From positions 5,442 to 69,441 of the forward strand of contig CAZJMX010000004.1 of the NCBI GenBank assembly GCA_964547345.1: 64,000 nucleotides of DNA. Direction: 5' to 3'. This document shows positions 11,952 to 57,117 of the stretch, piece by piece. The position numbers and the translations under genes are program-made. Numbering within the stretch: position 1 is the first letter of the stretch; each line of letters begins with the position of its first letter. The notes beneath the pieces were generated by a model. It did no database searches, was not told the origin of the DNA, and saw only the letters and a program-made list of their open reading frames with translations. The stretch is from an uncultured Smithella sp. Its GTDB lineage: Bacteria > Desulfobacterota > Syntrophia > Syntrophales > Smithellaceae.

Positions 11952-12338
11952 ATGGACAAAACGACCAAAGCTGCCTTATTTTCCGCCATTCTCTTCCCCG
12001 GTTGGGGGCAGATCTATCTTAAGCGCTACAAAAGAGGATTGGTCTTTATCCTGCCCATCCTGGCCGCAATGATGATGCTGGCCTGGACAATCATTGCAGC
12101 AGGCGCAGCCATTATCAAAACCGCGCCATTTAAAAAAGGAGCCGTTCAGGTAAGCGACGTCCTTTCGGTGACAGTCCGGGCTTTTCAATCCATTGATTTG
12201 ATGTTTTTCTTGCTGATGATTGCCTTATTACTGTTCTTATGGCTCTTATCCATTGTCGACGCGTATCAGCTGGGTAAAAAACTCTCTTTGGCGCCTACCA
12301 CTGCCGCTGATCAAGAATCAACTTCTGATCAGCAGTAA
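11952..12338 (+). CDS. small integral membrane protein
   Basis: 128 aa with three hydrophobic segments and a FPGWGQIYLKRYKRG motif. The last 44 nt overlap the convergent ligase gene. Confidence 0.4.
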   Translation: MDKTTKAALFSAILFPGWGQIYLKRYKRGLVFILPILAAMMMLAWTIIAAGAAIIKTAPFKKGAVQVSDVLSVTVRAFQSIDLMFFLLMIALLLFLWLLSIVDAYQLGKKLSLAPTTAADQESTSDQQ

Positions 12339-13548
12339 TCGTACCGGCTTCCACATAATCGACCCCATCAACTTTTACCGTGCATATTTCCTTAAATATT
12401 TTTTTGAACTTGTCTTCCCAGGCGGCGGAACCTACATCCGGATTGGCCTTTTCCAGGCGCATCGTTAAAACATCCTCATGACCTGTTCGTGTGACAACCG
12501 CTTGCATCGGTAGATTTTCAAATTTTCCGGCAAGAAGTTTAAGTTGGCTGGGGGCGATGAAGAGCCCGCGGACTTTCGCGGCGTCGCCTACCCTGCCTGC
12601 AATTCCTGCCAGACGATAGGATGTTCTGCCGCAGGAGCATTTTTCGGTAAGAAGCCGCGACAAATCGCCCGTTCCGAAGCGCAGGAGAAAGAAGATGTTG
12701 TTGAGCCTTGTGACCACGACTTCGCCCAATTCACCGGGTGCGACATTCTTTCCCGTTGCCCGATCGACAATCTCCACAATTGTTTCTTCACAGATATGCC
12801 AGCCGGATTTTTGTGAACATTCATAGGCCACATCACCCACCTCCGTTGCGCCGTACATTTGGTAGGTGTCGATGCCGTATTCTTTTTCAAACGTTTGCCG
12901 CAGCGCGGGCAGTAGCGGCTCGGCGGCAAAGCAGGCTTTCTTCACCCGGAAATCTTTTTTGAAATGATAGCCCATTTCCTTGGCCGTGTTGATGATGGAC
13001 ATCAGAAAGCTCGGCGTGCCGACATAGGCGGTTACTTTCAAATCCCGAATCAATTGCACCTGAATCTGTGAAGATGAGGTGCCGGAAGGCACAACGGTTG
13101 CACCAACTTTGCGAAGACCATTGTGAAAGGTGAGGCCTGCCGCAACCAGATGGTAGGAAAAGGCGTTGAGCGCTATATCTTGAGGACCGATACCGGCTGC
13201 GAAAAACGCGCGCGCCCAGAGATAATCAGTCTCCGATAAGTGTGGTTCGTAAACGGGTCCCGGAGACGTAAAAATGCGGTCGATGGCGACGGCGGGATTC
13301 TCCAGCCCGGCATAAGGCAGCTTCTTCATTTCCATGTCTACGAGTTTTTCACGCGATATGACGGGCAATATTTCCAGGTCTTCGCGGATTTTTATCTTCG
13401 CAGGATTGACCTTGTGGGCATCAAAAATCTTTTTCAGTCGGGTTGATTTCTTATATCCGAGTCTCACCATTGCTGAAAGCGCCTGATCCTGCAAAGCTTT
13501 GCGATCTTTCAAGGAAGATTTTTCTCTGCCGTCAAAATACTTTTTCAT
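12295..13548 (-). CDS. phenylacetate-CoA ligase (PaaK)-like adenylate-forming enzyme family protein, P-loop degenerate
   Basis: 417 aa. Aligns by eye with E. coli PaaK across GATVVPSG...QLIRDL...TPSF, YGATEVG, GELGEVVVT and CSCGRT. The SSGTTGKPT loop reads TSPGPVYEP. Confidence 0.75.
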   Translation of the reverse strand: MKKYFDGREKSSLKDRKALQDQALSAMVRLGYKKSTRLKKIFDAHKVNPAKIKIREDLEILPVISREKLVDMEMKKLPYAGLENPAVAIDRIFTSPGPVYEPHLSETDYLWARAFFAAGIGPQDIALNAFSYHLVAAGLTFHNGLRKVGATVVPSGTSSSQIQVQLIRDLKVTAYVGTPSFLMSIINTAKEMGYHFKKDFRVKKACFAAEPLLPALRQTFEKEYGIDTYQMYGATEVGDVAYECSQKSGWHICEETIVEIVDRATGKNVAPGELGEVVVTRLNNIFFLLRFGTGDLSRLLTEKCSCGRTSYRLAGIAGRVGDAAKVRGLFIAPSQLKLLAGKFENLPMQAVVTRTGHEDVLTMRLEKANPDVGSAAWEDKFKKIFKEICTVKVDGVDYVEAGTITADQKLILDQRQW

Positions 13549-13564
13549 CGTGTCCCCTCCCCCT

Positions 13565-14365
13565 TTACAGCCAGCGTTTGCGGCGGCGATAGGACTTGAC
13601 GTCTTTATAAGATTTCGCCAGACCGGATGCCGCCATTCCCAGATAAAATTCCTTCACGTCCGGATTATCGGAAAGCTCTTTGGAGGTGCCTTCCATAACG
13701 ATCTTGCCGTTTTCCATCACATAGCCGTAATGCGCGACTTGCAACGCCATCGGGGCGTTTTGTTCCACCAGGACGATGGTGGTCGCGTGTTCTTCATTGA
13801 TCTTTTTGATAATGCGGAATATTTCCTGAACCACCAGGGGCGCGAGTCCCAGCGAGGGTTCATCCAGCATCAAGAGTTGCGGATGCGCCATGAGCGCGCG
13901 TCCGATGACAAGCATTTGTAATTCGCCGCCGCTGCAATATCCCGCAAGCGCCTTGCGCCTCTTCACTAAGGCCGGAAAATACTGATAGACCATTTCCAGA
14001 TCCTGCTTGTAGGGTTTGCCCGGTCTCGTTGCCGTACCGACGCGCAGATTTTCTTCAATGGTCAGATATTTAAAAGGCTGACGGCCTTCCAGAACTTGAA
14101 TAACACCCTGACGGGTGATGAATTCCGGAGCCTGATTCTGAATGTTCACGCCGTTGAAAATAATGCTGCCGTCCGTTACCTCGCCGTTTTCCGGTTTGAG
14201 CAGGCCGGAGATGGCCTTGAGCGTCGTGGTCTTACCCGCGCCGTTGCTGCCCAGAAGCGATACGATATGGCCGCGTTCAACCGTAAGCGAAACGCCCTTG
14301 AGCACCTGAATGACGTCGGAGTAAACGACGGATATATTATTGAGCTGTAAGAGAATGTCTGCCAT
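13565..14365 (-). CDS. livF: branched-chain-amino-acid-type ABC transporter ATP-binding protein (LivF-like)
   Basis: 266 aa. Walker A GSNGAGKTT, signature SGGELQML, Walker B LLMLDEPS. Confidence 0.9.
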   Translation of the reverse strand: MADILLQLNNISVVYSDVIQVLKGVSLTVERGHIVSLLGSNGAGKTTTLKAISGLLKPENGEVTDGSIIFNGVNIQNQAPEFITRQGVIQVLEGRQPFKYLTIEENLRVGTATRPGKPYKQDLEMVYQYFPALVKRRKALAGYCSGGELQMLVIGRALMAHPQLLMLDEPSLGLAPLVVQEIFRIIKKINEEHATTIVLVEQNAPMALQVAHYGYVMENGKIVMEGTSKELSDNPDVKEFYLGMAASGLAKSYKDVKSYRRRKRWL

Positions 14366-14373
14366 ACGCTATC

Positions 14374-14429
14374 CTAACCCCGTTAAACGGGATAATTTCT
14401 AACTCACTAACCCCGCTATGCGGGATAAG
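14374..14429 (-). repeat. two tandem copies of a ~22-nt hairpin motif in the livM-livF spacer
   Basis: On the plus strand: CTAACCCCGTTAAACGGGATAA (14374-14395) and CTAACCCCGCTATGCGGGATAA (14407-14428). Each has a 5-bp stem, and the stem difference is compensatory (CCCGT/ACGGG versus CCCGC/GCGGG). Confidence 0.5.
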
Positions 14430-14435
14430 AAAAAT

Positions 14436-14470
14436 TTAGTATTTGCTTTCTAGTAAAAAGCAAATACTAA
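14436..14470 (-). terminator. AU-rich perfect hairpin with U-tract, intra-operon terminator/attenuator-like element
   Basis: TTAGTATTTGCTTT-CTAGTAA-AAAGCAAATACTAA (14-bp perfect stem). On the minus strand it is followed by ATTTTTCTT. It lies 5 nt after the livM stop. Confidence 0.4.
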
Positions 14471-14474
14471 TTTT

Positions 14475-15572
14475 CTAATAAGAAAACGGCCAGAGCCGGA
14501 AATTCGACCGGAGAATCCGCCACAATTCCGCAAGCCCCTTCGGTTCCAGCAAAATAAATAAAACAATCGCCAGGCCGAAAACAAACTCGCGCAGAGGCGC
14601 CATGTTCAACCCCATGCTGGTGACGAATCCGACATTCATTAAAACCCCGGTCGCAAAACGCAGCACTTCGTTTAGCACCGTGATAAATGTCGCACCGAAA
14701 ATCGCGCCGGGAATATTGCCCATGCCGCCGATGATGACCATCGCGATAAATTCAACCGACAGCCCGAGATTGAAAGGTTCTGTCGTGATGCTGACCATGT
14801 AATAAGCCCAGATCGCGCCGGCAAAACCGGCATAAAAAGAGCTGATGGCAAAAGACAGCAGCTTGTATTTGAAAATGGGAATACCCATGCCTTCGGCGGC
14901 ACGATCGTTGTCCCGGATGGCGATAAACGCACGACCGTACTTGCTGCGCATGATGTTGACGGCAAACCAGGTCATCAATACCAGACAGATGAAAATCAGA
15001 AAGAAAAATGCCTTATCCCCCGCGATTTTCCATCCCAGAATGCTGGGCGCCGGCAAGGTAATGCCCATGGTTCCCAGGGTCAGGCTCTCCCACTGGATGA
15101 GTACATATTCGATAATGAACTGTCCCGCCAGTGTCGCGATGGTCAGATACAGCCCTTTGAGACGGCCGGAGGGGATGCCGAAAATCATGCCGATCATGGC
15201 GGTGATCAGACCTGCGGCGGGAATGGACAAATAAAACGGGATGCCAAGCCTTGTTGCCAGAATGGCCCCTGCGTATGCGCCGACACCGAAAAACGCACCA
15301 TGCCCCAATGATATTTGTCCCGTGTAACCGACCAGGATGTTGAGTCCGATGGCGGCAATCGCCATAATCCCGATGTTGTTTAAAATGTAGAGCAGGTAAG
15401 AGCTCAGGAAAAAAGGCGCGAGCCCGAAGAGCAAAATCAGAAAAACGATGAGGCAGGTCCTGCCATACCATGTTTCAAAAATGGCCAGTTCCTGGGCGTA
15501 TGTTTCGCGGAAATTTCCGCAGGGATGAAAAGATAATTTTTTCATGAAACGCTTTCCTCTAAACTCTTTCAA
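14475..15572 (-). CDS. livM: branched-chain-amino-acid-type ABC transporter permease (LivM-like)
   Basis: 365-aa multi-TM ORF of LivM type. An alternative start, ATG 15545 (MKKLSF), is preceded by GAGGAA and would remove the overlap with livH. Confidence 0.88.
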   Translation of the reverse strand: MKEFRGKRFMKKLSFHPCGNFRETYAQELAIFETWYGRTCLIVFLILLFGLAPFFLSSYLLYILNNIGIMAIAAIGLNILVGYTGQISLGHGAFFGVGAYAGAILATRLGIPFYLSIPAAGLITAMIGMIFGIPSGRLKGLYLTIATLAGQFIIEYVLIQWESLTLGTMGITLPAPSILGWKIAGDKAFFFLIFICLVLMTWFAVNIMRSKYGRAFIAIRDNDRAAEGMGIPIFKYKLLSFAISSFYAGFAGAIWAYYMVSITTEPFNLGLSVEFIAMVIIGGMGNIPGAIFGATFITVLNEVLRFATGVLMNVGFVTSMGLNMAPLREFVFGLAIVLFILLEPKGLAELWRILRSNFRLWPFSY

Positions 15573-16437
15573 TCTCCACCAGGCCGAATAAGCCGTAAGG
15601 CTTGACCATCAGAATAAAGACCAGCACAATATAGGGGACGACATCGCGCAGCGACGGCGACAGATATCCGCCGGTAAAGGTTTCCAAAAGGCCGATGATA
15701 ATGCCGCCGATAATCGCGCCGCCGATGCTGTCCAGACCGCCTAAAATAACAACGGGAAACACCTTCAGTCCGATCGCGCTCAAATCATGCACGTTTACGC
15801 CGTTGATGATGCCCAGCACAATGCCGCTCATACAGGCCACCATGGCTGCAATCGCCCAGGAGAGCGCAAAAACGCGGCGCACATGAACGCCCAGAGATAA
15901 GGCCGCCTTTTGATTATCCGCCACTGAGCGCATGAAGATGCCCTGTGACGACTTTTTGAAAAATAAACCGAAAAGCACCAGAAAAATGACGCTGATGATC
16001 AACGTCGCCGAATAGACCGGCGCGATGTAAATCGATCCCAATTTGAGCTCCAGAGATTGCGGTAAAAATTCCGGATAGGTATGCAGATTGCCGCCCCAAA
16101 TGAGCAAAATAAGCCCTTTGAACATGGCGGCCAGGCCCACGGTCAGCATGATGACGAATATTAGTTTTTCGCCGATGAGCGGACGGAGGAAAAACTTTTC
16201 TATTAACACCCCCAGAAGAAAGCATCCTGCCAATGTCAATAGAAATGCGGCCGCCACGGGTATTTTGCCCCAGGTCACTAAAGACAGAAAGAAAAAGGCG
16301 CCCATAGCCAGAAGCTCTCCGTGAGCGAAGTTGAGAACGCTCGACGCCTTAAAGATCATGACAAAGCCCATGGCGGAGATGCCGTAGAGCAGCCCGACGC
16401 AAACGCCATTAACCAATAATTGCAGAAAAAAATCCAT
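15559..16437 (-). CDS. livH: branched-chain-amino-acid-type ABC transporter permease (LivH-like)
   Basis: 292-aa multi-TM ORF. MDFFLQLLVNGVCVGLLYGISAMGFVMIF is typical of the LivH N-terminus. Confidence 0.9.
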   Translation of the reverse strand: MDFFLQLLVNGVCVGLLYGISAMGFVMIFKASSVLNFAHGELLAMGAFFFLSLVTWGKIPVAAAFLLTLAGCFLLGVLIEKFFLRPLIGEKLIFVIMLTVGLAAMFKGLILLIWGGNLHTYPEFLPQSLELKLGSIYIAPVYSATLIISVIFLVLFGLFFKKSSQGIFMRSVADNQKAALSLGVHVRRVFALSWAIAAMVACMSGIVLGIINGVNVHDLSAIGLKVFPVVILGGLDSIGGAIIGGIIIGLLETFTGGYLSPSLRDVVPYIVLVFILMVKPYGLFGLVEIERV

Positions 16438-16448
16438 AGTGTAATTCC

Positions 16449-18377
16449 TTAATCCACGCTGATGACATTGATGCGGGTTTCAATTTCTCCGATACGACCG
16501 TCGCGGTAACGAACTTTTCCCGTGACCTGAACATTTTTTTGTCCACTGTACATGGCTTCGATGATTTTAAGGTAGAGCCCGTAAACAAAACGTCTGCGCA
16601 CTTTGCCCGTTCGTGTGAGTTCTTCATCATCCGCGTCGAGCAGTTTATAAAGCAATACAAATTTTTTTATTTTCATGACGTCGGGAAGCTGCTCGTTCAC
16701 CTGGCGAACTTCCGTGAGAATCATTTCTTCCACGGCCTGCTGCTGGGACAAATCCATGTAGGTCGTATAAGGAATCATTCGCTCTTCCGCCCAGTTGCCG
16801 ACATTGCCCAGATCGATGTTGATCATGGCGGTAATAAACGGCCTGGCTTCGCCGAAGGTCACCGCTTCTTTAATGTAGGGGCTGAACTTCAGGCGGGTTT
16901 CGATAAAATCAGGTGAAAAAGCCTCGCCGCTTTTATTTCGGATGATGTCTTCTTTCCGGCCGATAATCAGCAAGTGACCGCGTTCATCAATGTAACCCGC
17001 ATCACCGGTTTTTAACCAACCGTTTTCAAATGCGCCTTCCGTCGATTTGTAGTCGTTGTAGTAACCGGAAAAGTTCGCTTCCGATTTCACAAGGACTTCC
17101 TGATCGCTTGCGATCTTGACTTCCGTTTGCGGCAGGGGAAGGCCTACCGTTTCCAGTTTGACTTCATGGTCCGGTTGAATTTGAAAAATACCACCGGATT
17201 CCGTAAGCCCGTAACACTGTTTTAAATTGAGGCCGATGGCCCGGAAAAATCCGATCACGTCGGGGCTGATCGGATGCCCGCCGGTAAAAGCGCTGGAAAA
17301 ATGCGCACAACCCAGACGATCCAGAAGAGGCCTGTAAACGACAAAGGACATAAACCGGTAGATCACTCGCGTTGGCAGAGAAATGCTTTGCTTATGCAGT
17401 TGTTTTTGCACGATGGATCGTCCGAGACTTTCACCCCAGTAGAAAAGTTTCTTTTTGATCCAGCCTGCGTCGGAAATTTTTACGCGAATACGCGAGGCCA
17501 TATCTTCCCAGAAGCGTGACGCGGTAATCAGTATGGAAGGCCCGATTTCGCGGAAATCTTCAGTCACTGTCTCTGCCGTTTCCGGAAAGTTCATGGTCAT
17601 GGCCGTACCCAGAGAGACACCCATGCCCCACATCTGATCGACAATCCAGGCCGGCGGCGACATGGAGATCCAGTTTTCTTCCACCTGAATATTTTCGGCC
17701 ACAAGCCACTGTTCCGCCATCGATGTTAAATTGCGATGCGACAACATGGCGATTTTAGGAACGCCTGTGGTTCCGGAGGTTTGAATCATCACGGCAATGT
17801 CATGGGACCGGCCTTTAGCAATTTGCGCATCTACATACCCCGGATGATCGACAAGATATTTTTCACCCATCTCCAGGAGTTTCGCGTAACTCACAAGCCA
17901 GGGATCGTCCTCGTAGGACGTCATCCCGGTGGGATCAATATATACAACCTTTTGCACAGCAGAGAGCTTGTCTTTGACTTCGAGAAGCTTGTCCACCTGT
18001 TCCTGATCCTGCACCACGACAATGGGAGAATGAATACGTCCGATGGAGAAAGCCAGTTCGTCGGCCACGGACGATGTAAATAAATTCAAAGTGGTTGCGC
18101 CCAGCGCGTGACAGGCAAGTTCCGAAAACAGCCACTCCGGAGCGTTATTGACAACCATGCAAAGATTTTCGCCGCGCTGTAAATTCAGTGCGGCAAAACC
18201 CGCCGCCGTCTTTTTCACGAAACCCAGATAGTCATTCCAGGTATATTTCTGCCAGATGCCGTATGCTTTTTCGCGAATCGCCGTTTTTTGGTCGCCAAAC
18301 GTCTCCGCGTTTTGCGCCAGAATCTGGGGCAAAGTCAAATTGCGGTAATCGCGGCTATGTTTTTTTTCGTCAGCCAA
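16449..18377 (-). CDS. AMP-dependent acyl-CoA synthetase/ligase (long-chain-fatty-acid-CoA-ligase-like) embedded in the ABC operon
   Basis: 642 aa. Intact AMP-binding signature IQTSGTTGVPKIAMLSH, YGLTESGG, TGDAGYIDERGHLLIIGRKED. Confidence 0.85.
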   Translation of the reverse strand: MADEKKHSRDYRNLTLPQILAQNAETFGDQKTAIREKAYGIWQKYTWNDYLGFVKKTAAGFAALNLQRGENLCMVVNNAPEWLFSELACHALGATTLNLFTSSVADELAFSIGRIHSPIVVVQDQEQVDKLLEVKDKLSAVQKVVYIDPTGMTSYEDDPWLVSYAKLLEMGEKYLVDHPGYVDAQIAKGRSHDIAVMIQTSGTTGVPKIAMLSHRNLTSMAEQWLVAENIQVEENWISMSPPAWIVDQMWGMGVSLGTAMTMNFPETAETVTEDFREIGPSILITASRFWEDMASRIRVKISDAGWIKKKLFYWGESLGRSIVQKQLHKQSISLPTRVIYRFMSFVVYRPLLDRLGCAHFSSAFTGGHPISPDVIGFFRAIGLNLKQCYGLTESGGIFQIQPDHEVKLETVGLPLPQTEVKIASDQEVLVKSEANFSGYYNDYKSTEGAFENGWLKTGDAGYIDERGHLLIIGRKEDIIRNKSGEAFSPDFIETRLKFSPYIKEAVTFGEARPFITAMINIDLGNVGNWAEERMIPYTTYMDLSQQQAVEEMILTEVRQVNEQLPDVMKIKKFVLLYKLLDADDEELTRTGKVRRRFVYGLYLKIIEAMYSGQKNVQVTGKVRYRDGRIGEIETRINVISVD

Positions 18378-18392
18378 AATATCTAAGCCTTC

Positions 18393-19223
18393 TTAGTCCA
18401 GCTTCTGCGCTTCGCCCAGATAAGCTTTTACGACTTCCGGATTTGCGCTGATTTCTTCGGGAGTTCCTTCTCCGAGCTTTTCACCGAAGTTGAGCACCAT
18501 GATCCTCCGGGAAATGCTCATAACAATAGACATGTCGTGTTCGACCAGAATCATCGTGAGCCCCCATCTGCCGTTTAATTCCAGCAGAAATCTCACCATA
18601 TCTTCTTTTTCTTCCAGATTCATACCGGCAAAGGGCTCGTCCAGAATCAGAAGCTTCGGTTCGAGCGCCAGCGCCCGCCCCAGCTCCACGCGTTTCATCA
18701 TGCCGTAGGGCAGTGAGCCGACAGTTTTCTTGCGGATGGATTGCATCTCCAGAAAGTCGATAATTTCTTCGAGGATCTGCCGATGACGGATTTCTTCCTG
18801 CCGGACTTTCGGTGAAAAAAGACAGGAACGCCAGAAGCTGTAATGGCAGTGGATATGGCGCGCAAGCGTCATGTTGGCCAGAACCGTCATACCGGGAAAC
18901 AACTCAATGTTCTGGAAGGTTCGACCGATGCCGACACCGACTAACTGATGGGTATGGAAATTCGTAATGTCGCGGCCATTAAAAAGAATCTGCCCCTGCT
19001 GGGCATGATAGAATCCTGTGATGCAATTGAGTAAACTGGTTTTACCTGCGCCGTTGGGGCCGATGACGGCCGTTAATTCACCGGTACGAACAGTCAGATC
19101 GACATCCTTGACCGCAACGACACCGCCGAAACTTAAGCGTAAGTTCCGGATTTCCAATTCGGCTTTTTTGTCTTCTTCCGGCCGGTTGATCATTATGGAA
19201 GGCCGGCTGCGAAATGCTTTCAT
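18393..19223 (-). CDS. livG: branched-chain-amino-acid-type ABC transporter ATP-binding protein (LivG-like)
   Basis: 276 aa. Walker A GPNGAGKTS, LSGGxx-equivalent region LPYGMMKRVELGRAL, Walker B LLILDEPFAG. Confidence 0.9.
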   Translation of the reverse strand: MKAFRSRPSIMINRPEEDKKAELEIRNLRLSFGGVVAVKDVDLTVRTGELTAVIGPNGAGKTSLLNCITGFYHAQQGQILFNGRDITNFHTHQLVGVGIGRTFQNIELFPGMTVLANMTLARHIHCHYSFWRSCLFSPKVRQEEIRHRQILEEIIDFLEMQSIRKKTVGSLPYGMMKRVELGRALALEPKLLILDEPFAGMNLEEKEDMVRFLLELNGRWGLTMILVEHDMSIVMSISRRIMVLNFGEKLGEGTPEEISANPEVVKAYLGEAQKLD

Positions 19224-19239
19224 GACTACCTCTGCGCAG

Positions 19240-19294
19240 ACAAAAACACTGCGCTCAATTGCGCAGGGGATGCCGGATCATCCGGCATCCCCTG
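19240..19294 (-). promoter_or_regulatory. intercistronic hairpins after the binding-protein gene (mRNA stabiliser / partial terminator candidate)
   Basis: Near-perfect GC-rich palindrome CAGGGGATGCCGGAT-C-ATCCGGCATCCCCTG (19264-19294). On the minus strand it is followed by CTGCGC-AATTGA-GCGCAG and TGTTTTTGT (19240-19266). Confidence 0.45.
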
Positions 19295-19303
19295 TCATTT
19301 TCA

Positions 19304-20509
19304 CTATTTTTTGATCAGGTGAATCTTGTCTTTCCCCGGAATGTAGAAATTCGTCAGAGGAACATAGGTTCCATCTTCGCTCACTTTGACCATGCGCGCG
19401 GTAAATGAACCTTCGTGATTGTCTTTGGTATAGGTGACGGCCGGCGCCAGACCGCCGAAATCTTCGTTCTTGAAGGATTCCAGCGCGGCGTTGACAGTCG
19501 CCGGATTAATAACCTTGGACTTTTCATAAGCACGGATGAAGGCTCTTTCCATGATCATGCCGATAACGACGCCTTCCCAGTAAGCCGCGTCGAACGAATC
19601 CACGGTTTTGTATCTCTTCCAGAGTTCTTTCATAATTTCCATGCTCTTGGATTTATCCGAAGGCAGACCACCGGGAAACTGCATGACCAGACGATCGCGG
19701 ATCAGGCCTTTACCCATTTTGAAGAAATCCGGGTCTGTCGATGTCCAGGTTCCGAGGAAAACAGGTTCGTATTTGATGCGGTCGGCGCTTTTGAAAGCCG
19801 TGATGATGGCTGACGGCAGCATCTGGATAAAAACATATTCCGCACCGGCTTTCTGCAGACGCAAAAGCTCCGTGTTCAGATCCACCGTGCGGGGCGGAAA
19901 TTCTTCGATCGCGACCAGATTAATGCCCAATTGCGCCGCGTATTCCTTGCTGGGCGCGTGAATCGAACGACCGTAAGCGTTATTGTAGGTTAAAAGACCG
20001 ACCTTGGGCGCTTCCTTGTCTTTATGAATGGCTTTGATGTATTCCAGAACCGCGTGGCAGTCCATCTTATAGCTGCCGAAGGGCAAATACATGTAATCAA
20101 AAGGTTTGATGAGAATTTCCCAACTGGTGGAATAGTTAATGGTTGGAACTTTATACTCCTGGATGATGGGCTTTGCCGCAAGGCCCTCGCCTGCGCCCCA
20201 CGTGGCGATCATGTCCACTTTATCCTGCATCACGAATTTGCGGACGGCGGCCTGTGCTTCCGGTACTTTGTAGGCTGTGTCGATGGTGATCATGTCGATT
20301 TTGTGACCGGCCACGCCGCCTTTGACTTCGTTGACATACTGAAAATAGTCGCGCTGACCCTTTTCATGAAATTTCCCCCAGCTCGACGCCGGTCCCGTCA
20401 GATTGATCGCCGCACCGACTTTAATGGGCTTCTTTTCGGCTGCTGCTGTGCCAATGGTTAAAAACACAACCGCTGAAATTGCCAGTAGTAGGCTGCTCCA
20501 TCTCTTCAT
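19304..20509 (-). CDS. periplasmic substrate-binding protein of Liv-type ABC transporter (ligand unknown)
   Basis: The track ORF is 428 aa from 20590. I place the start at ATG 20509 (MKRWSSLLLAISAVVFLTIGTAAAEKK signal peptide), preceded by GAGGGGGATGG. Type-1 periplasmic binding protein fold family. Confidence 0.85.
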   Translation of the reverse strand: MKRWSSLLLAISAVVFLTIGTAAAEKKPIKVGAAINLTGPASSWGKFHEKGQRDYFQYVNEVKGGVAGHKIDMITIDTAYKVPEAQAAVRKFVMQDKVDMIATWGAGEGLAAKPIIQEYKVPTINYSTSWEILIKPFDYMYLPFGSYKMDCHAVLEYIKAIHKDKEAPKVGLLTYNNAYGRSIHAPSKEYAAQLGINLVAIEEFPPRTVDLNTELLRLQKAGAEYVFIQMLPSAIITAFKSADRIKYEPVFLGTWTSTDPDFFKMGKGLIRDRLVMQFPGGLPSDKSKSMEIMKELWKRYKTVDSFDAAYWEGVVIGMIMERAFIRAYEKSKVINPATVNAALESFKNEDFGGLAPAVTYTKDNHEGSFTARMVKVSEDGTYVPLTNFYIPGKDKIHLIKK

Positions 20510-20555
20510 TTTTCCATCCCCCTCATTTATTTTTTTAACGCGTCCCTTTTCCGAC

Positions 20556-20592
20556 AAAAAAAAACCGTGGACATGTTTTGATCTGCCCACGG
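20556..20592 (-). terminator. intrinsic-terminator-like hairpin inside the 5' leader of the importer operon (attenuator)
   Basis: Minus strand: CCGTGGGCA-GATCAAAACA-TGTCCACGG (9 bp with one G-U) followed by T9 (20564-20556). It ends 47 nt upstream of the binding-protein ATG. Confidence 0.6.
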
Positions 20593-20613
20593 TTCATTTC
20601 CCTTTTCGAACGG

Positions 20614-20709
20614 TCATGATACTTTCAGGCAGACCTTGAAGCTTTTAAAGCTAAAAAAGTAAAAATAGTAGTCAAATGCCTGATTAAATAATTTGTATTT
20701 CAACATCAT
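20614..20709 (-). CDS. candidate leader peptide, 31 aa, Phe/Tyr-rich (MMLKYKLFNQAFDYYFYFFSFKSFKVCLKVS)
   Basis: ATG-ATG at 20709 is preceded by AGAGGTG with a 7-nt spacer. 7 Phe and 4 Tyr in 31 codons. This is the 3' part of track ORF 20614..20814. Confidence 0.45.
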   Translation of the reverse strand: MMLKYKLFNQAFDYYFYFFSFKSFKVCLKVS

Positions 20710-20733
20710 TTTACTGCACCTCTTGCACGTGCG

Positions 20734-20762
20734 CATATAGGCAAATGACCGAAAAAAGTCAA
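20734..20762 (-). promoter_or_regulatory. sigma70-like promoter candidate for the leader/importer operon
   Basis: Minus strand: TTGACT (20762-20757), 17 nt, TATATG (20739-20734). The -10 is imperfect. Confidence 0.3.
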
Positions 20763-20777
20763 GAAAAAAAGTTGACT

Positions 20778-20798
20778 GGCATCTTTGAACCGGATGCC
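20778..20798 (-). terminator. weak terminator-like hairpin after gltA
   Basis: Minus strand: GGCATC-CGGTTCAAA-GATGCC directly after the gltA stop. The T7 run starts only 7 nt later, so this is a non-ideal terminator. Confidence 0.3.
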
Positions 20799-20800
20799 TT

Positions 20801-22090
20801 TTACCGTCTTTCATCCATCGGAAGATAGTGCCTCAAGGTGCTGCCGGTATAAATCTGCCGGGGGCGTCCGATTTTAAGCGGTACGGAATCGTGCATTTCT
20901 TTCCACTGGGCAATCATGCCCGGCAGACGTCCAATCGCAAACATGACGGTGAACATGTTTGTCGGAATGCCGATCATACGATATAAAATGCCGCTGTAGA
21001 AGTCGACATTGGGATAGAGCTTCCGCTCGATAAAGAAATCATCTTTTAACGCCGCGTCTTCCAGATCCATCGCGATGTTAATCAGCGGATCCTGATAGTT
21101 GTGCTTTTTAAAGATCGTTTCGCAGTATTTTTTTAAAATTCTGGCGCGCGGATCATGATTTTTGTAAACGCGATGGCCGAATCCGAACAGGCGGAACTTG
21201 CTGTTTTTATCTTTGGCCGATTCTATACATGACGCAATCGAAAGGTTGCTTGCTTGAATTTCTTCCAACATTTCGATCACTTTTTGATTGGCGCCGCCAT
21301 GCAGCGGCCCCCACAACGCACAAATGCCTGCGCAGATGGATGAATAGAGGTTGACCATGCTGCTTCCCACCAAACGGACGGTGGAGGTTGAACAGTTTTG
21401 CTCATGGTCGGCATGCAGGATCAATAACGTGGACAGAGCCCGTTCCATGTCGGGATCCGGCACATAAGGGTTCACCGGCGAGTCGAACATCATATAAAGA
21501 AAATTGGAGGCGTATTTCAGGTCACGTTTGGGATACACGTGCGGTTCGCCGATACTGTGTTTATAAGAATAAGCCGCAACGGTCCGGATTCTGGATATCA
21601 GAGAGGCGGCCATCAAATCGAATTTTTCAGCCTCAAAATCTTCCGTGTAGTAATCCGTATAATAAACCGACAGGGAGTTGACCATCGTGCCCAGAATAGC
21701 CATCGGATGCGCCGTGGGAGGAAATCCGTCAAAGAAACGCAGCATCTCTTCGTGAATCATGGAGTTCTGTGTGAGTCTTTGAGAAAACAACTGTTGTTCG
21801 GTTTTATTAGGGAGATTCCCGTAAATCAGAAGATAGGCGACTTCAGAAAAGCTGGCTTTTTCGGCCAGTTCTTCAATGGGAATACCGCGGTATCTTAATA
21901 CTCCTTTGTCTCCGTCGATAAAAGTAATGGCCGATGTGCACGACCCTGTATTCTGATAACCGACATCAAGGGTGATCAGATCAGTTTCCTGACGTAATTT
22001 GGATATATCGACAGCTCTTTCCCCTTCACTGCCGCAAATAACAGGCATTTCGTGGGTCACTCCGTTAAATAATAATGTTGCTTTGTCCAT
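20801..22090 (-). CDS. gltA: citrate synthase
   Basis: Motifs HADHEQNCSTSTVR, GPLHGGAN, GFGHRVYKNHDPRA. Start chosen at ATG 22090 (MDKATLL), with GGAGA 7 nt upstream. The track ORF starts at 22111. Confidence 0.93.
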   Translation of the reverse strand: MDKATLLFNGVTHEMPVICGSEGERAVDISKLRQETDLITLDVGYQNTGSCTSAITFIDGDKGVLRYRGIPIEELAEKASFSEVAYLLIYGNLPNKTEQQLFSQRLTQNSMIHEEMLRFFDGFPPTAHPMAILGTMVNSLSVYYTDYYTEDFEAEKFDLMAASLISRIRTVAAYSYKHSIGEPHVYPKRDLKYASNFLYMMFDSPVNPYVPDPDMERALSTLLILHADHEQNCSTSTVRLVGSSMVNLYSSICAGICALWGPLHGGANQKVIEMLEEIQASNLSIASCIESAKDKNSKFRLFGFGHRVYKNHDPRARILKKYCETIFKKHNYQDPLINIAMDLEDAALKDDFFIERKLYPNVDFYSGILYRMIGIPTNMFTVMFAIGRLPGMIAQWKEMHDSVPLKIGRPRQIYTGSTLRHYLPMDERR

Positions 22091-22127
22091 TCTTTGTCTC
22101 CGGTAATTCATTAAAAGGTTGTCAAGT

Positions 22128-23802: not shown

Positions 23803-24342
23803 CTACTTGTTGATCACAGCGTCGAAACGAATATCGATGTTGTATTCGTCACTGATCCGGTTGAAATCATTTTTAAGATCGAGAATTTTAACGGTGGGCG
23901 GCAGTGCAAAATAACAGACCATCTGAAACGTGTTGGCCCCCGTCATGGGATTATTATCGACGTTTGTGGAAATGTCGTCAACGTTGACACCTCGCGCCTG
24001 GAGCGCTTTGCATATCTGATGGATGATACCGGGGTGATCAATCGATGTGGCGATAAGCTTGTAGGGAATAGACGGCAAGATGTCGCGATGCCCCGGTGCT
24101 TTGGTCTTTCGAACATAGATGTCGAGATTTGTTTTTTTCCGCAGGCTGTCCAGATCGGAAATCAGCCGCTCGATATCGTCGGTTTTGCCCGATGTGAGAA
24201 TGATCATTCCAAATTCGTTGCCCAGCACGCAGCCGCGGGAGCGCTCGATATTAATGCCCCGCGCCGTGAAGAACTCGGCAATTTCTCTGGCCAGACCGGG
24301 ACGATCCGGTCCCATCGATGAAACAACAACATATGATCTCAT
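23803..24342 (-). CDS. two-ACT-domain protein, glycine-cleavage-repressor (GcvR)-like
   Basis: 179 aa. VVSSMGPDRPGLAREIAEFFTARGINI and ATSIDHPGIIHQICKALQARGVNV are two ACT-type beta-alpha starts. It ends 4 nt before fhs. Confidence 0.7.
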   Translation of the reverse strand: MRSYVVVSSMGPDRPGLAREIAEFFTARGINIERSRGCVLGNEFGMIILTSGKTDDIERLISDLDSLRKKTNLDIYVRKTKAPGHRDILPSIPYKLIATSIDHPGIIHQICKALQARGVNVDDISTNVDNNPMTGANTFQMVCYFALPPTVKILDLKNDFNRISDEYNIDIRFDAVINK

Positions 24343-55337: not shown

Positions 55338-57117
55338 ATGCGATTACATACTACCCGATTGGAATTATTGAAGAGCAATACAAAGAAATTTAAGGAGTTA
55401 TTATTTTTTTACTTGACATAGTATTGCATACGATATATAAATTATTATGGCCAGCATTATTAAGAAAAAGTCAAAATATAGTACATACTACGTCGTCGCC
55501 GAATCCGCACGCGTTGACGGCAAACCCCGGATCGTCAAGCAATGGTACCTGGGAACCATTGAAAAGATTATCGCCATGGCCGAGGGAAGCTCCGATAAAG
55601 AAGAACCCCGGCAAATCGACTGTGTTTCGGAAGGCGCTATCGCTGTTCTCTTTAAAATAGCCGAGGAACTGGGCATAAGGAAAACCGTTGACCAGTGCTG
55701 CCCTAAACGCCAGCAGGGGATGAGTGTTGGCGATTACATCCTCATTGCCGCTCTCAATCGTGCACTTGCCGCAACATCCAAAAGCAAAATTGCAGAATGG
55801 ATCGATTCCACGGCTTTGCATCTTTATATGCCGCTCCAAAAGGAAAAGCTGGAATCTCAGAACTTCTGGGATCATTTTGATAAATTGGACAAAGAGATGA
55901 TTGACAGGATTGGCGATGATGTCGCCAGGAAAGCGATCGAGCTGGAAAACATCCCCCTGGACACGATCGTTTACGACACCACCAACTATTACAATTATCT
56001 CGATGTGCTTACACCATCCGAATTATCCAGAATGACCAAATCCAAGGCCGGGCGTAACAGCTTACGTCATATCGGTCTGGCTTTGGCGGTGGATCGCGAT
56101 TATGGAATCCCCTTATTCAGCAGGTTGTATCCCGCCAATGAACATGATGCCAAAGTGATGAAAAAACTGATCGATGATATTTTTGAACAAATCAACGGCT
56201 CGATGTCCGACAAAAAAGGGATTACGCTTGTTTTCGACAAGGGGAATAACAGCGAAACACTGATCTTGAAGCTGGATGAAAGTCGGCATCATTTTGTCGG
56301 CAGCCGCAGCCCTTATCACCACAAAGACCTCTGTCATGTTTCCCTGGAACAATACAAGGAGGTCCGTATCAAAAATGGTGAAACAATAACGGTTTATGAG
56401 ACCCGCGAAGAGATCTATGGCGCACAGCGCAGGATCATTGTTTCCTTCAATGAGTCCACCTTCCAGCGCCAATTACACCGAATAGAGCAGAATCTGGAAA
56501 AAGCCAAGGAAGAGCTGTCCTCCTTCAAACGCAAAGCAAAAGATGCCGACGGCCGTTCCACGATGGATTCGATTAAGCGGCAGGCTTTGGAGATCACGGA
56601 TCGGTATCATGTGACGGGGCTTCTCGTTATCGACATTCTGGAAGAAGACAACCGTTTCAAGGTCAGCGCGCGCAAGAACTTTCCGGCCATCGAGGAGGCT
56701 AAAACGAGATTCGGCAAACAGATTCTATTTACAGACCGGGAATCCCTGACGGCAGGAGAGATTATCGACATTTATCTTGATCGGTATATTGTCGAAGATG
56801 CCTTCCGGATTACCAAGTCCGACCGCTGGGTCAAGATGGACCCGGTGCTTCACTGGACGGATTCCAAGATTCGCGTACATGCGTTGACTTGCATGATTGC
56901 ACTTCTTTTGGTGCGCATTGCGCACAAGCGAGCCCGTGCCAACGGCTTTACGAAAAGCGCGGAGCGGATGCTGGAATTACTGTCATCCATCAATACTGCA
57001 ATACTTCTCTATCCTAAATCCACCAAGGCGGTTCGTGTTCGGTGTTCCATATCAAAGGAGCAGGAGCTCTTACTGACTGCTCTCAACTGCCAAATCCCGC
57101 ATAGTATGTAATCGCAT
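55338..57117 (+). mobile_element. IS1634-family insertion sequence (1780 bp) with 16-bp perfect IRs and 5-bp target duplication
   Basis: ATGCGATTACATACTA (55338-55353) is the exact reverse complement of 57102-57117. The direct repeat CTTTA flanks both ends (55333-55337 and 57118-57122). A single transposase ORF lies inside. Confidence 0.8.
55447..57111 (+). CDS. IS1634-family (IS4-related DDE) transposase
   Basis: 554 aa. The N-terminus KKSKYSTYYVVAESARVDGKPRIVKQWYLG is typical of IS1634 transposases. DDE region VYDTTNYY...VFDKGNNS...YIVEDAFRITK. Confidence 0.9.
   Translation: MASIIKKKSKYSTYYVVAESARVDGKPRIVKQWYLGTIEKIIAMAEGSSDKEEPRQIDCVSEGAIAVLFKIAEELGIRKTVDQCCPKRQQGMSVGDYILIAALNRALAATSKSKIAEWIDSTALHLYMPLQKEKLESQNFWDHFDKLDKEMIDRIGDDVARKAIELENIPLDTIVYDTTNYYNYLDVLTPSELSRMTKSKAGRNSLRHIGLALAVDRDYGIPLFSRLYPANEHDAKVMKKLIDDIFEQINGSMSDKKGITLVFDKGNNSETLILKLDESRHHFVGSRSPYHHKDLCHVSLEQYKEVRIKNGETITVYETREEIYGAQRRIIVSFNESTFQRQLHRIEQNLEKAKEELSSFKRKAKDADGRSTMDSIKRQALEITDRYHVTGLLVIDILEEDNRFKVSARKNFPAIEEAKTRFGKQILFTDRESLTAGEIIDIYLDRYIVEDAFRITKSDRWVKMDPVLHWTDSKIRVHALTCMIALLLVRIAHKRARANGFTKSAERMLELLSSINTAILLYPKSTKAVRVRCSISKEQELLLTALNCQIPHSM

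Follow-up and report, generated by a model that had tools for sequence, protein, structure and literature searches.

A phenylalanine-codon leader with features of a transcription attenuator upstream of a transporter and acyl-CoA ligase operon in Smithella and related Syntrophales

The leader region and the operon it precedes

We analyzed a 64,000-nucleotide (nt) stretch of DNA from an uncultured Smithella sp. (assembly GCA_964547345.1, contig CAZJMX010000004.1, positions 5,442 to 69,441), hereafter the window, in which a short leader lies between the citrate synthase gene gltA (20801-22111) and a co-directional operon of seven genes (12295 to 20524) that encodes a Liv-type ATP-binding cassette (ABC) transporter and two acyl-coenzyme A (CoA) ligases. 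Coordinates are window positions, and the leader elements, all on the minus strand, were read directly from the sequence (Table 1). The leader combines a phenylalanine (Phe)-rich open reading frame (ORF) with an intrinsic terminator and mutually exclusive complementary segments, and judging from these sequence features and their conservation, it very probably controls the seven-gene operon by ribosome-mediated transcription attenuation, with translation of the leader peptide serving to sense charged tRNA-Phe.

An earlier reading of this DNA, which we refer to as the original prediction, had proposed that a translated leader rich in aromatic codons precedes the transporter and CoA-ligase operon and acts through terminator and antiterminator logic, and the comparative data presented here support that proposal. 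The promoter-like TTGACT and TATATG hexamers with their 17-nt spacing, the AGAGGTG 7 nt before a tandem ATG-ATG, the terminator with nine U residues, and the complementarity between the antiterminator strand and the terminator arm all lie where they had been placed. The predicted 31-codon ORF is also there and encodes MMLKYKLFNQAFDYYFYFFSFKSFKVCLKVS, with 7 Phe and 4 tyrosine (Tyr) residues, although the start of the orthologous leaders aligns with the second ATG (20706) and not with that at 20709. Within the ORF, the 13-codon regulatory run holds 6 Phe and 3 Tyr codons. The terminator stem is 9 bp long and GC rich, and GGCAGAUC within it is the target of the antiterminator strand; the spacer contributes UCAU (20619-20616), which can pair with AUGA (20597-20594) as the inner helix of an extended antiterminator hairpin. 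From the U-tract to the ATG of the binding-protein gene there are 47 nt, which hold only the ribosome-binding site (RBS) of that gene.

A generic terminator and promoter scan missed both the leader terminator and the leader promoter, the former because its 10-nt loop exceeds the 8-nt limit of the scan and the latter because TATATG fails the rule's requirement for a final T, and these misses are no evidence against either element. The leader frame stays open in the 5' direction across the promoter into the end of gltA; the resulting ORF of 66 amino acids (20614-20814) was considered as a gene and rejected. The promoter is preceded by a T-rich tract. Just past the citrate synthase stop codon, a weak hairpin on the minus strand (20765-20799; GGCATC, 9 nt, GATGCC) is followed 7 nt later by T7, which doubles as the T-rich stretch 5' of the -35 box of the leader promoter, and this hairpin may be a leaky gltA terminator.

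Table 1. Features of the leader and of the operon downstream, in window coordinates
Feature	Position	Strand	Description
Leader promoter	20734..20762	-	Promoter-like; -35 TTGACT (20762-20757), 17-nt spacer, -10 TATATG (20739-20734)
Shine-Dalgarno sequence of leader ORF	20723-20717	-	AGAGGTG, 7 nt 5' of ATG-ATG (20709/20706)
Leader ORF	20614..20709	-	M(M)LKYKLFNQAFDYYFYFFSFKSFKVCLKVS*; 31 codons plus TGA (20616-20614); 30 codons from ATG 20706
Regulatory codon run	20638..20676	-	TTT GAC TAC TAT TTT TAC TTT TTT AGC TTT AAA AGC TTC
Region 1	20677..20683	-	UCAGGCA, 5' strand of anti-antiterminator; complementary to UGCCUGA (20631-20625)
Region 2	20625..20635	-	GGUCUGCCUGA; partner is region 1 or region 3 (antiterminator)
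Antiterminator strand	20635-20628	-	GGUCUGCC; complementary to GGCAGAUC (20587-20580)
Spacer	20594..20619	-	Holds stop codon (UCA UGA CC) and conserved GGGAAAUGAA
Intrinsic terminator	20556..20592	-	Region 3 CCGUGGGCA (20592-20584), 10-nt loop, region 4 UGUCCACGG (20573-20565), U9 (20564-20556)
Binding-protein gene with RBS	19304..20524	-	First regulated gene; RBS GAGGGGGA, ATG 20509; LivJ-like periplasmic solute-binding protein, Peripla_BP_6 (Pfam)
LivG-like ATPase	18393-19223	-	Pfam/NCBIfam
FadD11-like acyl-CoA ligase	16449-18377	-	642 amino acids; Pfam/NCBIfam
Two Liv-type permeases	15559-16437 and 14475-15572	-	Pfam/NCBIfam
LivF-like ATPase	13565-14365	-	Pfam/NCBIfam
PaaK-like phenylacetate-CoA-ligase-family protein	12295-13548	-	417 amino acids; 16 nt past LivF-like gene; Pfam/NCBIfam

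Conservation of the phenylalanine codons among orthologs

We retrieved 79 loci around orthologs of the binding-protein gene and 80 around orthologs of the PaaK-like gene from Smithella and Syntrophales genomes and scored the upstream regions, independently of any motif, for a short ORF in which some stretch of 7 codons has 4 or more Phe. Such an ORF was present in 87 of 97 nonredundant orthologous upstream regions, compared with 88 of 5000 control windows taken from the same loci (1.8%). The 10 negative regions comprise 3 in which the Phe/Tyr run is spaced out, 1 in which the leader lies farther upstream, 4 with decayed or frameshifted leaders (L115 among them), and 2 distant orthologs (57 to 60% identity) with no leader. 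The element travels with the operon whatever gene lies upstream, and its promoter (CTTGAC..17 nt..TATA) is conserved regardless of the identity of that gene. When 1.84 Mb of related DNA was searched for the region 2/region 3 motif, 106 matches lay directly upstream of the binding-protein gene, and the sole other match was also upstream of it, farther off. A collection-wide scan for GGTCTRCC N25-55 CCGYRGGYRGA was discarded, the pattern being too degenerate for 596 Gb, with chance matches in unrelated phyla among the matches listed.

Four loci look like natural losses of the element. A Syntrophus aciditrophicus metagenome-assembled genome (L039) retains only remnants of the Phe run and of a terminator arm and has no U-tract, a second locus (L044) keeps the terminator next to a degenerate ORF, a third (L073) carries a frameshifted leader, for which an assembly error at low coverage is possible, and in the fourth (L115) the leader has decayed together with the operon. 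Within the whole window, only 1 of 546 small ATG-initiated ORFs reaches 4 or more Phe in 6 residues; apart from the leader, this density is seen in a single small ORF (MVIIFFFIF.., 49618, plus strand), which lies antisense inside a cytidylate kinase gene and looks like a chance occurrence.

An intact, in-register leader ORF is found in 81 nonredundant orthologs, which we discuss as groups A (the Smithella group), B, C, C', D, and E. Leaders of 17 to 28 codons carry a median of 5 to 6 Phe in every lineage, and outside the Phe run the peptides are unrelated between lineages, the forms observed being MLK..QA..FYFFSF.GFKVCLKVS, M..FFTFFAFFSGVCL.RS, MNRQIS..GFFFSFFSFFGEVCRPCS, M..SFGFFFFD, and MKTVTTSTNFFFFFV, with MLRIRVQRFFTFFAFFSGVCLLRS, MNRQISNITISGFFFSFFSFFGEVCRPCS, and MTNNSFGFFFFD as further examples. 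Both Phe and Tyr had been proposed as the signal. The Phe run is conserved, but Tyr codons are nearly confined to the Smithella group (49 of 52 leaders, versus 3 of 29 in the others), which indicates that Phe is the universal conserved signal.

The run is constrained at the level of codons. Internal cytosines in the pyrimidine runs of the 81 leaders occupy codon position 3 in 69 of 79 instances, with 2 at position 1 and 8 at position 2, and TTY triplets number 469 in frame versus 219 and 275 in the other two frames. If U richness of the RNA were what mattered, C could stand in any of the three phases, and the concentration of C at position 3 therefore argues that the run is maintained as UUY Phe codons and not as U-rich RNA. 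Run length differences in the alignment of 51 group A sequences are whole codons, and the GAGG core of the Shine-Dalgarno sequence and the start codon are nearly invariant there.

Some lineages differ in the surroundings of the leader. Groups D and E (L046, L047, L051, L056-L065, L068, L075, and L078) have a leader region about 150 to 210 nt 5' of the binding-protein start, with an ORF of 16 to 18 codons that ends in ..FFFF[D/V]* and begins at a conserved ATG about 11 nt past a -10-like TTTAAA. This ORF has no Shine-Dalgarno sequence, and its TAG stop overlaps the antiterminator strand; from this arrangement, the mRNA may be leaderless or nearly so. Just downstream is a GGUCU:AGAUC/GACCU hairpin in which L065 shows a G-U to G-C change. 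In groups B and C, the attenuator terminator is followed, ahead of the RBS, by a tandem second hairpin that resembles a terminator (GGCCGTGG....CC.GGCC plus T6-7) and lies 20 to 50 nt 5' of the binding-protein start (L049, at about 2950-2980, and L045, L048, L050, L055, L072, L040, L042, L037, and L043), and the 5' arm of this second hairpin resembles that of the first terminator (GCCGTGG).

Alternative helices and a proposed mechanism

The checks suggested along with the original prediction included a fold of the leader and an alignment of orthologous upstream regions. The unconstrained minimum-free-energy fold of the leader holds the predicted terminator together with a hairpin between regions 1 and 2 (1:2), and the alignment shows that the codon run, the stop position, the terminator, and the pairing between regions 2 and 3 (2:3) are conserved across lineages. 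A covariation test restricted to the Smithella group was little informative because the helix cores are invariant, and a cross-lineage anchored alignment was built instead. In its gap-free form, the terminator helix is paired in 90.6% of cells, compared with 31 to 43% in slid registers, with compensatory double changes at 5 pairs; every lineage has a GC-rich stem of 9 to 12 bp followed by U6 to U9. In every lineage, the antiterminator strand GGUCUGCC(UG..) matches the terminator's 5' arm by complementarity (81.5% of cells paired versus 27 to 42% in slid registers). Where region 3 differs in groups D and E (C to U, G to A), both partners of region 3 are still compatible with it, and one 2:3 pair shifts from G-C through G-U to A-U across lineages. 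The region 2 motif GGTCTGCC is near-invariant in all lineages, including groups D and E, where it lies outside the ORF, indicating that its conservation reflects the RNA and not the peptide.

The region 1 complementarity proposed as an anti-antiterminator is present as well. The duplex of regions 1 and 2 has an energy of -15.1 kcal/mol, which none of 100 shuffles reached; in group A, the helix is paired in 83.6% of cells with double changes at 3 pairs, and almost no shuffle matches this pairing in groups A, B, C', and part of C. Energies calculated for the window are -14.2 kcal/mol for the 1:2 hairpin and -14.1 kcal/mol for the terminator formed by regions 3 and 4 (3:4), and regions 2 and 3 folded without region 4 reach -20.4 kcal/mol, a value that includes the UCAU:AUGA inner helix; these helix energies are comparable to those of classic attenuators. 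The segments ATCATGACC and GGGAAATGAACC are strongly conserved in group A, and an inner helix between the conserved AUCAUGACC and GGGAAAUGA would explain the conservation of both of these segments.

The geometry is similarly constrained. Across the 81 leaders, the first Phe codon of the run lies 17 to 53 nt upstream of region 2, the stop codon occupies one of two fixed registers, either a TGA 19 nt past the start of GGUCUGCC, and thus of region 2 (rarely +8 or +10), or a TAG overlapping region 2 at -2, and the spacing between region 2 and the base of the terminator stays at about 35 nt in every lineage. Given ribosome footprint sizes as they are generally known, these distances would fit a ribosome that stalls in the run or terminates at the stop codon.

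We hypothesize that the dedicated promoter would give rise to a leader transcript of about 170 nt whose first feature is the ORF of 30 or 31 codons rich in UUU and UUC. When charged Phe-tRNA is ample, the ribosome would reach the UGA stop and cover region 2 (GGUCUGCCUGA), and when no ribosome is present, region 1 would hold region 2; in either case the terminator (3:4 with U9) would be free to form, ending transcription 47 nt 5' of the binding-protein gene. When Phe-tRNA is scarce, the ribosome would stall in the Phe run, masking region 1 and leaving region 2 free at least 29 nt downstream, where it could capture the emerging 5' arm of the terminator in an extended antiterminator and so allow RNA polymerase to enter the operon. 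Groups D and E would follow a reduced design that dispenses with region 1, places the stop codon inside region 2, and starts the leader ORF close behind the -10-like box with no Shine-Dalgarno sequence.

Several points weigh against this interpretation. The ortholog sequences are phylogenetically related, and the counts given above represent nonindependent events. The 1:2 helix, which the original prediction had made part of the switch, is absent from groups D and E and from one C subgroup, and RNAalifold, run on the group A alignment, did not report it, recovering the terminator and a small GGUC:GACC helix. Double changes in the 2:3 helix occur in one pair only and none within group A, so that covariation support for this helix is thin because its core is almost invariant. 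With all four regions present, the terminated and read-through folds are near-isoenergetic (-20.7 versus -20.4 kcal/mol), and the outcome would therefore rest on kinetics, that is, on a competition between helices. The model also assumes transcription-translation coupling in these slow-growing syntrophs, and the regulated genes are not a recognized Phe pathway.

Among alternative explanations, the leader might serve as a general translation-stress sensor in which read-through reports any slowdown of elongation, as under antibiotics or global starvation, and not the charging of tRNA-Phe. BmrB/BmrCD and ermC-type leaders act as sensors of this kind. A stall anywhere in the ORF ahead of region 2 would indeed trigger this architecture, and ABC transporters under ribosome-mediated attenuation without amino-acid specificity are known (PMC4191407), but the only peptide feature shared across lineages is an in-frame run of 4 to 8 Phe codons, which is the signature of amino-acid-specific attenuators, and the transporter is a Liv-type importer and not a drug exporter; we consider this explanation unlikely. 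Still less probable is a nascent-peptide arrest sensor comparable to TnaC, SecM, or MifM, in which the Phe-rich chain itself would halt translation on sensing a small molecule (e.g., an aromatic acid) or the status of the membrane or of secretion, independently of tRNA charging. The peptide is hydrophobic and aromatic, and its C-terminal part in group A (..SF.GFKVCLKVS) is well conserved, but these conserved residues are encoded by RNA region 2 and its flanks, segments kept as nucleotides even where they are untranslated (groups D and E). Groups A to E share poly-Phe alone and no arrest motif, and leaders as short as 12 to 17 codons, such as MTNNSFGFFFFD, leave little room for sensing in the exit tunnel.

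The conservation of GGUCUGCCUGA, AUCAUGACC, and GGGAAAUGAACC as nucleotides, beyond what a leader peptide would need, and the fixed distance from region 2 to the terminator would also suit an attenuator that works through RNA alone or through a protein, with a riboswitch-like fold or an RNA-binding-protein site in the U-rich tract and an incidental ORF. Against this stand the frame-specific placement of C in the pyrimidine runs, the conservation of the Shine-Dalgarno sequence, start codon, and stop register, and indels in whole codons; moreover, the locus has no Rfam match, and the alternative helices account for the conserved segments, making such an attenuator very improbable. We give the lowest probability, bordering on dismissal, to the idea that the ORF encodes a small protein in its own right or that the hairpin terminates the citrate synthase gene, with the ABC operon transcribed from its own promoter. 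The frame open from 20814 through the leader and the position of the hairpin downstream of gltA would be in keeping with it, but the 47 nt between the U-tract and the binding-protein ATG hold nothing besides the RBS, the element and its promoter also occur downstream of genes other than gltA, the peptide shows no sequence conservation, and the conserved 2:3 complementarity would have no role. An attenuator that responds to charged tRNA-Phe through the translating ribosome accordingly remains our preferred reading.

The regulated operon and comparison with known systems

The order of the operon genes is conserved in about 50 related loci, and a core of solute-binding protein, LivG, and ligase is retained in all divergent lineages. 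Among solved structures in the PDB, the closest relatives of the PaaK-like protein are genuine phenylacetate-CoA ligases (E values of 1e-37 to 1e-40), and those of the 642-amino-acid ligase are uninformative on substrate. The best solved relative of the binding protein is 3lkb, annotated as a branched-chain amino-acid binder (E value of 4.5e-30), followed by 7ylt, an entry cited in a paper on the indole-3-acetate-specific IadK2, and by Rhodopseudomonas aromatic-acid binders such as 4fb4, so that the ligand inferred from structures is ambiguous between amino acids and aromatic acids or indole-3-acetate.

The predicted induction by a shortage of Phe-tRNA implies that the operon helps to supply Phe, most likely through the uptake either of Phe itself or of aryl acids that would be activated with CoA and can serve as precursors of Phe. 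The presence of two CoA ligases, one of them of the phenylacetate-CoA ligase family, argues for a carboxylic-acid substrate. Anaerobes make Phe from phenylacetate according to Allison (1965), as cited in PMC7356843. A tentative and more specific possibility, which we consider less likely than not to prove correct, is a salvage route in which phenylacetate or related acids would be imported through the Liv-type ABC transporter under Phe shortage, activated by the PaaK-like and FadD-like ligases, and converted, as arylacetyl-CoA, to Phe by reductive carboxylation and transamination. If this were true, the element would be the first leader-peptide attenuator placed on the uptake and CoA activation of a precursor rather than on a biosynthetic enzyme or an amino-acid transporter, and a function would be assigned to a widespread orphan operon of anaerobes that joins an ABC transporter to acyl-CoA ligases.

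Several other features of the operon and its surroundings were observed. In many genomes, insertions of 0.7 to 2.7 kb separate the LivF and PaaK-like genes (e.g., L135 7649-9822 and L125 9352-9825) and encode a GNAT acetyltransferase, a DUF6036/NTP_transf_5 nucleotidyltransferase, and one unassigned ORF; as pathway enzymes these genes were rejected, since the acetyltransferase and nucleotidyltransferase look like accessory insertions, and where they occur, the PaaK-like gene may no longer be coupled to the attenuated transcript. The gap that separates the binding-protein stop (19304) from the LivG start (19223) contains two adjacent hairpins on the minus strand (19249-19296), a very stable GC-rich stem-loop of 14 to 15 bp (ACAGGGGATGCCGGA..TCCGGCATCCCCTG) and then CTGCGC..GCGCAG followed by TGTTTTTG, which may form an intraoperon partial terminator or an mRNA stabilizer that raises the binding protein relative to the membrane components. 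In the 110-nt gap between LivM and LivF (14366-14474, minus strand) lie an AT-rich palindrome of 16 bp (TTAGTATTTGCTTT..AAAGCAAATACTAA) and a short hairpin repeat that is present twice (TTATCCCG....CGGGGTTAG), and because this gap varies from about 12 to about 350 nt in orthologs, it looks like an inserted repeat element. Elsewhere in the window, a 179-amino-acid protein with two ACT domains, which are small-molecule-binding regulatory domains, is encoded upstream of the formate-tetrahydrofolate ligase and citrate synthase genes (23803-24342, minus strand), and a DDE transposase gene (55447-57111, plus strand) marks an insertion sequence element.

The main interest of the leader lies in the functional clue that it offers for the operon and in its natural series of variants. 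The regulatory signal is a strong indication of function for an operon type common in anaerobes and predicts a testable link to phenylalanine supply, and cis-regulatory logic is among the few routes to the physiology of organisms that are not yet in pure culture. Within one gene family, the architecture varies between four and three segments, between a stop codon downstream of and one overlapping region 2, and between Shine-Dalgarno-led and apparently leaderless ORFs, providing a natural set for studying the evolution of attenuators.

An Rfam cmscan of positions 20300-21000 at E values up to 10 returned only chance-level matches (a plastid intron, preQ1-II on the wrong strand, and a viral pseudoknot), and no significant match to the curated Phe leader, other amino-acid leader families, the T-box, or metabolite riboswitches. 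The ORF together with three helices explains the conserved segments of this leader of about 170 nt. The attenuators of pheA (pheL) and pheST (pheM) in Escherichia coli contain a leader ORF with Phe codons and respond to scarce Phe-tRNA with read-through. In gamma-proteobacteria, Phe attenuators are on record for pheA and pheST (PMC3082878; PMC3766115), with pheL reviewed in PMC3082878. What the Syntrophales leader has in common with pheL and pheM is a small ORF with a Phe run ahead of antiterminator and terminator hairpins that exclude each other, but the Smithella-group leader is about twice as long, and it precedes genes for uptake and CoA activation where pheL and pheM precede those for a biosynthetic enzyme or phenylalanyl-tRNA synthetase. 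With no Rfam match and no sequence resemblance to the phe attenuators, it is therefore an analogue and not a homologous member of that family. Groups A to C would follow the four-segment logic of the trp attenuator, with 1:2 pairing prevented by a ribosome stalled at the regulatory codons and region 2 covered by one that terminates at the stop codon; unlike in trp, the regulatory codons lie in the 1:2 loop and not inside segment 1, and groups D and E lack segment 1 and have a stop codon that overlaps segment 2.

The original prediction had been unaware of any described example of such an arrangement, and our literature searches likewise turned up neither a Phe leader in Syntrophales nor one that precedes genes for a transporter and CoA ligases; attenuators before transporters do, however, have precedents. 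His-leader attenuators, also predicted by comparative genomics, precede the histidine ABC transporter hisZ*YX and his operons of Firmicutes (PMC9413887) and resemble the present case in that a leader-peptide attenuator stands ahead of the genes of an ABC system that presumably imports the cognate amino acid. The amino acid and the phylum differ, and here the operon adds two acyl-CoA ligases, so that a compound other than the amino acid may be what is imported. T-box riboswitches control amino-acid transporters in Firmicutes (PMC3766115) and likewise turn uptake genes on by antitermination when the cognate tRNA is scarce or uncharged, but the T-box binds the tRNA directly, whereas here a translating ribosome would be the sensor. 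The BmrB leader of Bacillus subtilis controls the BmrCD ABC transporter operon by ribosome-mediated transcription attenuation (PMC4191407); it differs in sensing antibiotic-induced stalling, in controlling an exporter, and in having no amino-acid-specific codon run. Set beside these systems, the element is read as a family not described before that uses the established mechanism of ribosome-mediated attenuation and that would extend Phe-codon attenuation from gamma-proteobacteria to uncultured syntrophic Thermodesulfobacteriota.

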